64,000 nucleotides of DNA from Schmidtea polychroa (taxonomy: Eukaryota). The notes below the pieces were generated by a model. That model searched no databases, was not told the origin of the DNA, and saw only the letters and a list, made by a program, of their open reading frames with translations. A program made the translations under genes and the position numbers. Every line of letters starts with the position of its first letter. Within the stretch, counting starts at the first letter, position 1. Positions 35,873 through 38,800 of the stretch are shown one piece after another. The stretch is from positions 17,486,001 through 17,550,000 of the forward strand of contig CM097885.1 of assembly GCA_044892525.1 (NCBI GenBank), written 5' to 3'.

Positions 35873-38800
35873 CAGAAAGGGCCAACGAAAGCAACACCAG
35901 AGGGTCAAACGGACAAAATAATAGACGAATGGAACGAATGGCTGAGAAACAACGATAGCTCATTGCCAAGAACGGATAACGAGAGGAACCCGAATTATGA
36001 AAATACAAGGGAAGCCGGAACAATGATGGAAAAACGGGCAAAAGGGAGACCCAAGAAGCAAGGAGAAAAACCGGAATTTAAAACTAGAGAACAACTGAAA
36101 CAAGAACAAGGACAAGTCAGATTAGAGAAACTAGATAAAATAGTGTGGGATCTAAAAGAGGCCCAGCCAACTATCGAAAGAGGCGAAAAATGGATACGAG
36201 AGCTAGTAAAAGATATGCTAATAATAACGAACCCACAATTGCGACGGTTATGGCAACGAAAAGTAGCAAGCGTAGACGCCAGACAACTATGGAATACGAT
36301 ATCCGGAATAATTCCGAAATTAATCAAAGAGAAAACAAAAACCACTAAAACCGATTGGGAAGAGACAAGAAGAGTAATTGAACAATTAACTTTAAACGCA
36401 AACGACGACGAACATCATTTAGTAGTATTAACGTATCTAATGTACAATTTGATGGGATTAGCAGCAAGGAAAATACCTAACAAACAATTCGCAAATCATG
36501 TAGAAATGACCGTTACAATCATTGAAAATACAATCGAACCACATATTATCCGTGCCGGTGGATGGAAAAGACTCATACAAGCACCACGAAAAAACGAGCA
36601 AGAGAGATCAATGCAAATTCGGTTGAAGAAATTACTGAACGAGCTAGAATGGGAATTGCCATTAAAAGACCCAGCCAGCAGAAAAGCGTCGATTAATTCA
36701 CTAATGATGACCATGATGATATGGATGCTCTGCACCAGTGGAGCCGCTGGATTTACTATTTACGACTGTGACAATTCGATAATAGGAGAAAGATACTCCC
36801 TGAGAGACATAGAGGAATGTAGACAGGCATCTCCGAATAAATTAGATATAGTAAAAAAGAAAGTCTCCTATCACGTATACCAAGAATCAGATTTCATTAG
36901 AACGCAAGCTAGAGAATGCGTAGTATCGAAGAAAGTGTTGGCATATTACTGTGGACAATACTCATATTCAACCCTCATATTACCTGGATTAGATAAAGAA
37001 ATAGTACCTATACAACGAGAAGACTGTAAAGAGCTTTTTAGAACCGGAGCGATGAGAATCAGGGATGGAGTAACAATACACGGACAAAGCGGAATGATCA
37101 AGACAGAAAGTATCTATGTCGCCGGACGAGTAAAATCAACAGATGGATCATGTAACGGAGGCACATATACGATCAGAGGAGAGGTGATATCAGGAGTAGT
37201 AGTAATTGAGTCCTACACAGTGGAGTTGAAGGAATACGAAGCACAATTCGACGCGAACAACTATCAAATGAAAACCAACCCAGCATGCAGAGCTACGGAA
37301 AACGTGTGTAGAACGGGAATTTCGACTATAATATATGAAGCTAACACCCAAAAATGCCGACTCCAATTGTTAAAAAGTGCTCTATTCAATGAAGTAAAAG
37401 GAGAAATTTACGAAAACGAGGATGACGATGAAGAGAATGGAAACGTAAGGATGCGAAATGGGAAACCAGTTCCGCCATCCCCCAAAGAAAAGAGACTCAC
37501 AACCCAAAAAACACCAACGGCATTAATTACAGATGACCCAGATATCGGCATGAGATTCATTAGAGAAAAAGAGACCACCAAATGTGACAGCATAGTATAC
37601 CGGACGAACTACGCAGGTATCTACATGTCAAGGCAAGTAATAGACCGAGCAGTGGGAAAGGTAGCAACAGAGGACGTAAAATTGTACCTGTACGCCAATA
37701 ACAAAATGGACTTTTTATTTCACCGAGGACAAACGACAATGCAAAAAGTGTATTACGATCTTATACAAAATGACTGTTCATTGAATAAAGAGATACTAAA
37801 AACAAAATTAGCCATCGCAATAACACACCCAGATAACACAATGCCATCACTCCCGTTACCGGATGGACATTTTGGTAGAATGGTGGGAGAGGTAATGTAT
37901 ACATATGCATGTACCAAGACATTTGCGCGACTGCCAAGAAAGCCCACAATTCCACCAGGGAAATGTGCAAACGAGTTAGAAATTAGTTACAAGGGGCGAA
38001 ACAGATTCGTTCAACCCGTCACTAGGATAATGAACCCAATTGGATTTTACCCGAACACCTTTAACTGTTCAAATGCATACGGACCGTTATATGAAAAACC
38101 CGATGGGAAATGGATAATGTTACCGGTAAAAACCGAAGTACAAGAGCCTAAAAAGTTTGGATTAATAGAACTCGCAACGGAACAAGATTTCAAACCAATT
38201 GATGTGTCAAAAGCAGGTATGTACTCACCAGAGGATTTGGAAACGGCACGATTAAACGTATTATTCCCAGCAAGACGGGAATCCATTCTATCGAATATGG
38301 TTACCATAACCGGGGGAACGAATTTCCAGTCAGGCCCCAATTACGAACTATTATTGTCACCTGATCATTTTCAACAAGCCACGTCAAACATGATGAAAGC
38401 AATGTGGGGAAGATTTCTAGTATTCGGTCAAATGATGGCGGGAATATTGGGAATCATTCTTATTATCCAGATTGTCAGAGTAATATTAACTCAAATGTTA
38501 GCGTGTTTTGATATCTATAAGAGAGAAAAGAAGGTAAATTGGAAATTGATAGTAGGTTTTCTACCATTTTTGGCAAAAACAATGGTGTTGCACGGTCATT
38601 CTAAAGACATACACAGAATAAAACGATTGATCAAAATACTGACAAAAATAAAAGGAACTGACGAGGAAGTCGGTAGACGATTTCGGAAAACAATGTATGA
38701 TGAAGCAACAAGGACGCAACTGAAAAAGAACAAACCAAAATTCTTAGACAGATTTAGGAATCGATCAAACAGCAGCGATAGTGATGATGACGACAACGGG

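Follow-up and report, generated by a model that had tools for sequence, protein, structure and literature searches.

The DNA analysed here is a 64,000-nt stretch of the Schmidtea polychroa genome (the window, whose coordinates are used throughout; the annotated parts of the element described below are all on the + strand). It contains a giant Gypsy element of the Burro type with an in-frame envelope gene. The Env protein is a homologue of the chuvirus glycoprotein G with a predicted herpesvirus gB fold, and it was probably acquired once, long ago, and has since been inherited together with pol. The presence of such an Env in these elements is already known from published work (PMC6431247, PMC13524379), which does not support a claim of novelty for the envelope itself. 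One detail of that work would be corrected by our model, in which the Burro Env is predicted to be class III and not F-like.

The envelope gene and its viral homologues

Bases 36752-38488 encode a Monjiviricetes-type glycoprotein, which matched the Pfam family PF24664 (Monjiviricetes_fusion, E = 1.7e-74) with 251 bits against a curated cut-off of 27; no other Pfam family was matched. The original prediction, made by reading the bases, had placed env at 36752..38500, and this interval agrees with the annotation, as it starts just past a signal-peptide-like stretch and ends just past the transmembrane helix. The seven motifs on which it drew were all found, in the claimed order and in a single open frame: YDC (36761), YSLRDIEEC (36794), CGQYS (36950), DGSCNGGTY (37142), GEVMYTYAC (37886), CANELEISYKGRNRFVQPVTRI (37964) and GMYSPEDLETARLNVLFP (38216). 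The order was thus correct, but four of the spacings were not, three of them by one residue, while the EDL-to-LFP distance is longer than had been stated.

The proposed likeness to chuviruses was borne out by the PF24664 match and by named homologues, namely the G proteins of Tacheng tick virus 4 (E = 2.7e-26) and Guangdong red-banded snake chuvirus-like virus (E = 6.3e-25), which are 25-26% identical to env (phmmer). The ectodomain scored 111 and 106 bits against these two proteins, and 200 shuffles of it reached maxima of 2.7 and 4.6 bits, with the reversed sequence at about 0, indicating that the likeness is not a product of chance. A single-sequence search of the PDB and word-indexed homologue searches gave no match for env, the Atlas gave no usable one, and no relatives of env were found in a scan of viral contigs.

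The env region is not a separate ORF but lies in frame within a polyprotein, upstream of protease and reverse transcriptase (RT). Its ectodomain (36752..38410), classified as a class III gB/Monjiviricetes-type fusogen from Pfam, predicted structure and alignment, contains one N-glycosylation sequon, no R-X-K/R-R site and 14 conserved cysteines, all of which are kept at 93-100% across 124 sequences. A predicted internal signal-peptide-like stretch precedes it (36704..36751, by hydropathy), and a comparable stretch was found before env in 12 of the 12 retroelement polyproteins checked. The predicted transmembrane anchor (38432..38488) has a mean hydropathy of 2.53. These parts would give Env a type I topology (signal, ectodomain, anchor) as read from hydropathy only, with a second, weaker hydrophobic segment (38534..38590) located about 30 residues after the anchor. 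This segment is also present in chuvirus G, with hydropathy values of 1.0-1.7 in 14 of 14 proteins; on hydropathy alone it is likely not membrane-spanning, though it could span.

Predicted fold of the Env ectodomain

The ectodomain model built from the 124-sequence alignment had a pLDDT of 90.1, a pTM of 0.77 and a 48-residue central helix, while the model built from the single sequence had a pLDDT of just 30. Every row listed in a Foldseek search of this model against the PDB was a herpesvirus gB (best E = 6e-14), and VIA-align of the model with gB gave a Z of 10.5 and an rmsd of 5.8 over 386 aligned residues. A profile search of the PDB, which is sequence-based and independent of the model, also put herpes gB in ranks 1-35 of its 38 rows (best E = 0.0014). 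The three approaches agree with the class III fold that had been anticipated, and class I/II fusogens and cellular proteins were absent from the PDB rows listed, so the assignment of the predicted Env structure to the class III, gB-type fold stands. Env and herpesvirus gB share the predicted fold and the long central helix, but their identity is only ~11%. The original prediction had set this env apart from the baculovirus-F type of errantiviruses, in agreement with the exclusive match to PF24664, the lack of a furin-like R-X-K/R-R motif in the ectodomain and the predicted gB fold.

Among the predicted viral structures of BFVD, the best match was a chu-related G (E = 1.2e-37, TM 0.71). The top four (E from 1e-37 to 2e-35) belong to a dermapteran chu-related virus, a thrips chu-like virus, Tacheng tick virus 4 and Wenling crustacean virus 14, and glycoproteins of qin-related viruses and xinmoviruses are close behind, suggesting that the glycoprotein family is wider than Jingchuvirales. 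The motif pattern had been ascribed to Jingchuvirales glycoproteins; chu-like G proteins are indeed the best structural neighbours, but the family is not limited to that group. Chuvirus G (Jingchuvirales, PF24664) shares with Env the ectodomain homology, the cysteines, the anchor and the second hydrophobic segment. It differs in being a stand-alone protein of ~660 aa, whereas the window env is embedded in a polyprotein and falls on a separate branch of an unrooted tree.

Structure of the host element

The env gene is located inside a 30,559-nt LTR element (24452-55010). The 5' LTR (24452..28625; 4174 nt, TG...CA) has one mismatch to the 3' LTR (50837..55010), and the element is flanked by a CTAT target-site duplication (24448-24451 and 55011-55014). 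Located 7 nt past the 5' LTR is a primer-binding site (28633..28650) complementary to the 3' end of tRNA-Pro(TGG), which matches a tRNA-Pro(TGG) of the same genome. No obvious polypurine tract was seen before the 3' LTR (50800-50836), where the sequence is GC-rich.

An accessory ORF with a C3HC4 RING finger (29101..29580; PF13920, E = 3.2e-8) precedes the polyprotein. The Gag part (31343..35872) contains Pfam matches to Retrotrans_gag, CCHC knuckles and a weak ubiquitin-like unit, and in the window copy it ends at an in-frame stop (35870-35872), ahead of env. Between this stop and env there is a weak Bcl-2-like segment (36371..36565; E = 0.03-0.05, under the Pfam cut-off), which was found at the same place in a sister family and in the relative P0005 (E = 1e-3). 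An aspartic protease (39089..39364; PF00077, E = 1.3e-7) follows in frame after the Env tail. Further Pfam matches were to RT with a YIDD motif plus RNase H (40028..41080), to the integrase zinc-binding domain and core behind them (41402..41920), and to two ankyrin-repeat blocks (42839..43972). Downstream are a TRAF-like accessory ORF with RING and MATH domains (46374..47780; MATH E = 1.6e-24) and three more accessory ORFs of 345, 233 and 208 aa (48001..50605) with no match at E < 0.001.

The element had been attributed to Gypsy, an attribution that is upheld by the PR-RT-RH-IN order, the Gypsy-type Pfam domains, the TG...CA LTRs, the primer-binding site and the 4-nt target duplication. Domains specific to BEL/Pao (Peptidase_A17, DUF1758/1759, DUF5641) were absent among the Pfam matches listed for the window polyprotein.

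Additional features were observed in and around the element. The 4.2-kb LTR contains a 254-aa ORF without a Pfam match (27325-28089), with a twin in the 3' LTR, and tandem ~80-nt repeats (30157-30670) occur in the leader, downstream of the RING ORF and ahead of gag. A 780-nt inverted repeat (99.2%) surrounds the element (23668-24447 and 55801-56580), with one arm adjoining the target duplication; a foldback or TIR element was probably the insertion target. Nearby, a 196-aa ORF (23091-23681) ends in a (TA)n run and has a motif that we take to resemble a Penelope-type GIY-YIG endonuclease. Elsewhere in the genome, tRNA-Pro(TGG) genes form a long tandem array with a 475-nt unit at G000:C1 near 130.9 Mb (L066), and the tRNA-Pro(TGG) pattern has 2190 matches across the genome.

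Relation to described elements

Burro/GYPSM1 giant Gypsy elements of planarians were reported by Jurka 2007 and Grohme 2018, as cited by Arkhipova and Yushenova 2019 (PMC6431247). The latter placed the Burro env between BCL2 and PR, presented it as the first env to be located in frame between these two genes' usual neighbours, gag and pol, and found matches to fusion proteins of arthropod and fish mononegaviruses (PMC6431247). Judged by design against this published description, the window element is of the Burro type: both are ~30 kb in length, with long LTRs and one polyprotein of ~4,800 aa, which in both contains Gag, ubiquitin-like, BCL2-like, env, PR-RT-RH-IN and ankyrin parts (PMC6431247). 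The BCL2-like, ankyrin, RING and MATH cargo described for Burro is also present in the window element. The ORFs are 4,873 aa in Burro1, where MATH lies inside ORF1, and 4,811 aa in the window, where MATH is found in the downstream TRAF-like ORF (PMC6431247). The Burro env was likened in that description to gypsy, baculovirus and paramyxovirus F (PMC6431247), whereas the window Env is modelled as class III and gB-like.

More recently, Chary and Hayashi (eLife 2026) described HSV/gB-type, chuvirus-resembling env genes in many Gypsy elements and argued for an ancient origin of this env type (PMC13524379). Their GAG-ENV-POL elements come from nematodes, bryozoans and flatworms, including six from Schmidtea mediterranea (PMC13524379). 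These errantiviruses, Smed_errantivirus_1-6, have the same env type, gene order and host group as the window element (PMC13524379). The window env is not among the six representatives, the nearest being Smed_errantivirus_5 at ~57% (107/187 columns, by eye), while a second family of our genome (L013) differs from Smed_errantivirus_2 at ~4/251 residues in domains I-II (by eye, ~98% identity), which points to a Schmidtea planarian as host. No primer tRNA is listed for the GAG-ENV-POL elements in the account of PMC13524379, whereas the window element has tRNA-Pro(TGG). Chuvirus-derived G genes of the same glycoprotein family are also carried by Anakin, mosquito LTR elements that belong to BEL/Pao and not to Gypsy (PMC7642597, PMC10084718), and Dezordi 2023 reported no clear Gypsy capture in arthropods (PMC10084718).

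Copies, single-frame design and selection

Frames open over 4700 codons or more were found in 40 of the 84 scored copies (the best of 2700 candidates), and in 15 of these the frame is exactly 4811 codons long, indicating that gag, env and pol normally form one polyprotein. The single-frame design is shared by the genome's second family, whose identity to the window is 37-38% in env and ~50% in RT. The TGA ahead of env in the window copy was considered as a programmed readthrough site, and this was rejected: the stop is missing from most copies that cover the junction, and among 12 short loci it was present only at the window's own locus; other copies are broken elsewhere. The one continuous frame of the sister family also disfavours readthrough.

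Compared with four copies of a sister subfamily, env showed a dN of 0.062-0.064 and a dS of 1.22-1.35 (dN/dS ~0.05), and RT a dN of 0.014-0.016; these four copies were found via the C-terminal domain and not via env, and amount effectively to one comparison. Eight closer copies showed 0-11 amino-acid-changing against 11-90 silent differences in env, values that are biased low because these copies were drawn from the best env matches. All 12 copies in the selection analysis had been picked for long open frames. Env is under strong purifying selection, and an open frame alone needs no such constraint, suggesting that Env is in use now or was until recently. The element is young, with LTRs that differ by one mismatch and many young copies. 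Synonymous distances vary among domains of single copies (for example, 0.02 in RT and 0.13 in env), which suggests recombination between subfamilies.

Env might have lost its part in cell entry and be retained for work inside the cell, where it would tether Pol and assembly to the ER membrane. The in-frame design would make the Env anchor necessary for the placement of Pol, and the single glycosylation sequon is in line with such a role. However, the whole ectodomain, including all of its cysteines, is held at dN/dS ~0.05, a constraint far beyond the needs of an anchor or of an open frame, and we regard a purely intracellular Env as improbable.

Phylogeny and origin of env

A full-library search with env gave 870 matches, the best 150 of which were examined. 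No named virus was present among the 29 best of the 870 (E to 1e-30, 27-49% identity), and named chuviruses rank lower (E from 1e-26 to 1e-25). In a Pfam scan of 16 of these 29 proteins, protease or RT was found behind env in 11, while in the other five env stood by itself or behind a fragment of Gag or Bcl-2; those of sufficient length are env-protease/RT polyproteins. Next come stand-alone proteins of ~660 aa with 21-30% identity to the window env; among 20 of them that were looked up, two come from named chuviruses, and another falls in a cluster with a beetle protein. One of the gag-env-pol polyproteins, P0007 (HBK71150.1), carries the annotation of a Flavobacteriaceae MAG protein; the metagenome bin likely contains retroelement DNA of an animal.

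The first tree left out 31 of 159 proteins by a coverage filter, and IQ-TREE used 64 of 131 rows. Both FastTree (131 rows) and IQ-TREE (64 rows) placed the window env within a branch of gag-env-pol-type envs (0.998 and SH-aLRT 98, respectively; unrooted), and in the unrooted tree a 98% branch separates 18 such envs from the other rows. The two named chuviruses, the beetle protein P0154 and the BEL-type env P0099 are found together across another 98% branch, without the window env (unrooted). P0099, in which env lies behind a DUF5641 domain, thus groups with the stand-alone set and not with the window env. The trees contain only two named-virus rows, most rows being unnamed, and the groups were defined from the first tree; for these reasons, and because the trees are unrooted, the window env could still be nested in the chuviruses, and a root inside the chuviruses would nest the whole gag-env-pol env clade.

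Env and RT identities are correlated over 10 elements (Mantel rho 0.69, 6/5000 permutations), and 78/5000 permutations were obtained without the near sisters (n = 8). Four cherries agree between the env and RT trees; the deep nodes differ, those of RT being mostly weakly supported (23-47). Joint inheritance of env and RT over a long time fits these data better than a recent capture, and a direction cannot be read from them. The original prediction of an independent capture is sustained as to independence from baculovirus F, but not as to the direction and timing of a capture from a chuvirus by this Gypsy lineage. The phylogeny that had been proposed as a check recovered the gag-env-pol env clade and its co-divergence with RT, with the named chuviruses outside the clade of an unrooted tree.

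A flatworm Gypsy lineage could have taken a chuvirus glycoprotein in an event of its own, apart from the insect gB-type and BEL/Pao envelopes. This is consistent with chu-like G proteins being the best BFVD matches, with the position of P0099 (BEL-associated) and of the beetle protein P0154 outside the gag-env-pol clade, and with the finding that GAG-ENV-POL elements are not monophyletic in the POL trees of PMC13524379; an old event from an unsampled invertebrate virus is also compatible with the data. Nevertheless, among the named rows no virus sequence is inside or sister to the clade, the within-clade diversity (28-41% identity) is older than the window family, Env co-diverges with RT, and the unrooted tree gives no direction, so that a separate flatworm capture seems rather unlikely. 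A transfer in the reverse direction, by which chuviruses and related negative-strand viruses acquired their glycoprotein from older retroelement envelopes, would agree with the occurrence of gB-type env in Gypsy elements of many phyla, including cnidarians, as described in PMC13524379, and with a retroelement clade as deep in the tree as the stand-alone set. The gB fold, however, occurs widely in both RNA and DNA viruses and the tree is without a root, and we consider this direction an outside chance. A single ancient acquisition followed by inheritance with pol is the reading that we prefer.

A second predicted membrane protein at the polyprotein end

The C-terminal part of the polyprotein (44777..45778) encodes a second predicted type I membrane protein, with a signal-like stretch (44777-44833), an anchor (45581-45637) and no family match. 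Such a protein was found in six of six full-length polyproteins that reach a C-terminus past integrase, which are those of the window, the second family (L058), P0151, P0002, P0007 and, less clearly, P0014. The six ectodomains gave no blastp alignment beyond short weak pieces. Against the sister subfamily, the C-terminal protein has a dN of 0.082-0.088 compared with 0.063 for Env, and a dN/dS of ~0.09, so that it evolves faster than Env with purifying selection still present. Its identity between the two families is 38%, and their Env ectodomains are visibly closer. By eye we take one of its motifs to be fibronectin-III-like, an identity that was unconfirmed by Pfam and PDB searches.

No published description of this protein was found, and the main text of Chary and Hayashi makes no mention of 'polyprotein' or 'fibronectin' (PMC13524379); it may be annotated in Grohme 2018, Jurka 2007 or Sacco 2022, or in figures. 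The protein may thus be new to the literature, and it is a candidate attachment partner of Env. Herpesvirus gB requires gH/gL and a receptor-binding partner, and the entry of gB-type retroelement envelopes without gH/gL is called unknown by Chary and Hayashi (PMC13524379). Tentatively, the gag-env-pol elements could be ER-threaded agents with two glycoproteins, in which the gB-type Env would fuse membranes and carry Pol on its tail, replacing the Gag-Pol fusion, and the fast-evolving membrane protein, possibly fibronectin-III-like and released by cleavage from the C-terminal part of that polyprotein, would be the receptor-binding or triggering partner, as gD/gH-gL are in herpesviruses. The second membrane protein and the link of Pol to the Env tail would offer two concrete, testable answers on entry without gH/gL. 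Planarians are model animals with adult stem cells, and their dozens of young copies with a fusogen under strong selection make them tractable for studying this kind of entry.

Proposed mechanism

The element could be expressed as one polyprotein threaded into the ER, like the polyproteins of flaviviruses or alphaviruses. The internal signal would direct the Env ectodomain to the lumen, with signal peptidase splitting Gag from Env-Pol, and the Env anchor would bring the chain back to the cytosol, a topology predicted from hydropathy alone. PR-RT-IN would therefore hang on the Env tail until the protease cuts. Because PR, RT and IN are needed within the particle, a single passage of the chain into the ER lumen and back out is likely, and Pol would likely be packaged through the Env tail. 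After budding, particles that bear putative Env trimers would fuse with the membrane of a target cell and pass the element from cell to cell, such as out of differentiated cells into neoblasts or the germ line. On smedwi-2 RNAi, differentiated cells were reported to contain more RNA of the related family BURRO1 (PMC8532177), an expression in differentiated tissue that would suit a spread from soma to stem cells.

A recurring motif was found at several domain borders of the polyprotein, although its pattern has no match at the border between the Env tail and the protease; it may mark cleavage sites. Several tandem aspartic-protease-like domains were observed in the relatives P0151, P0002 and P0004, with up to 7 stretches in P0151.
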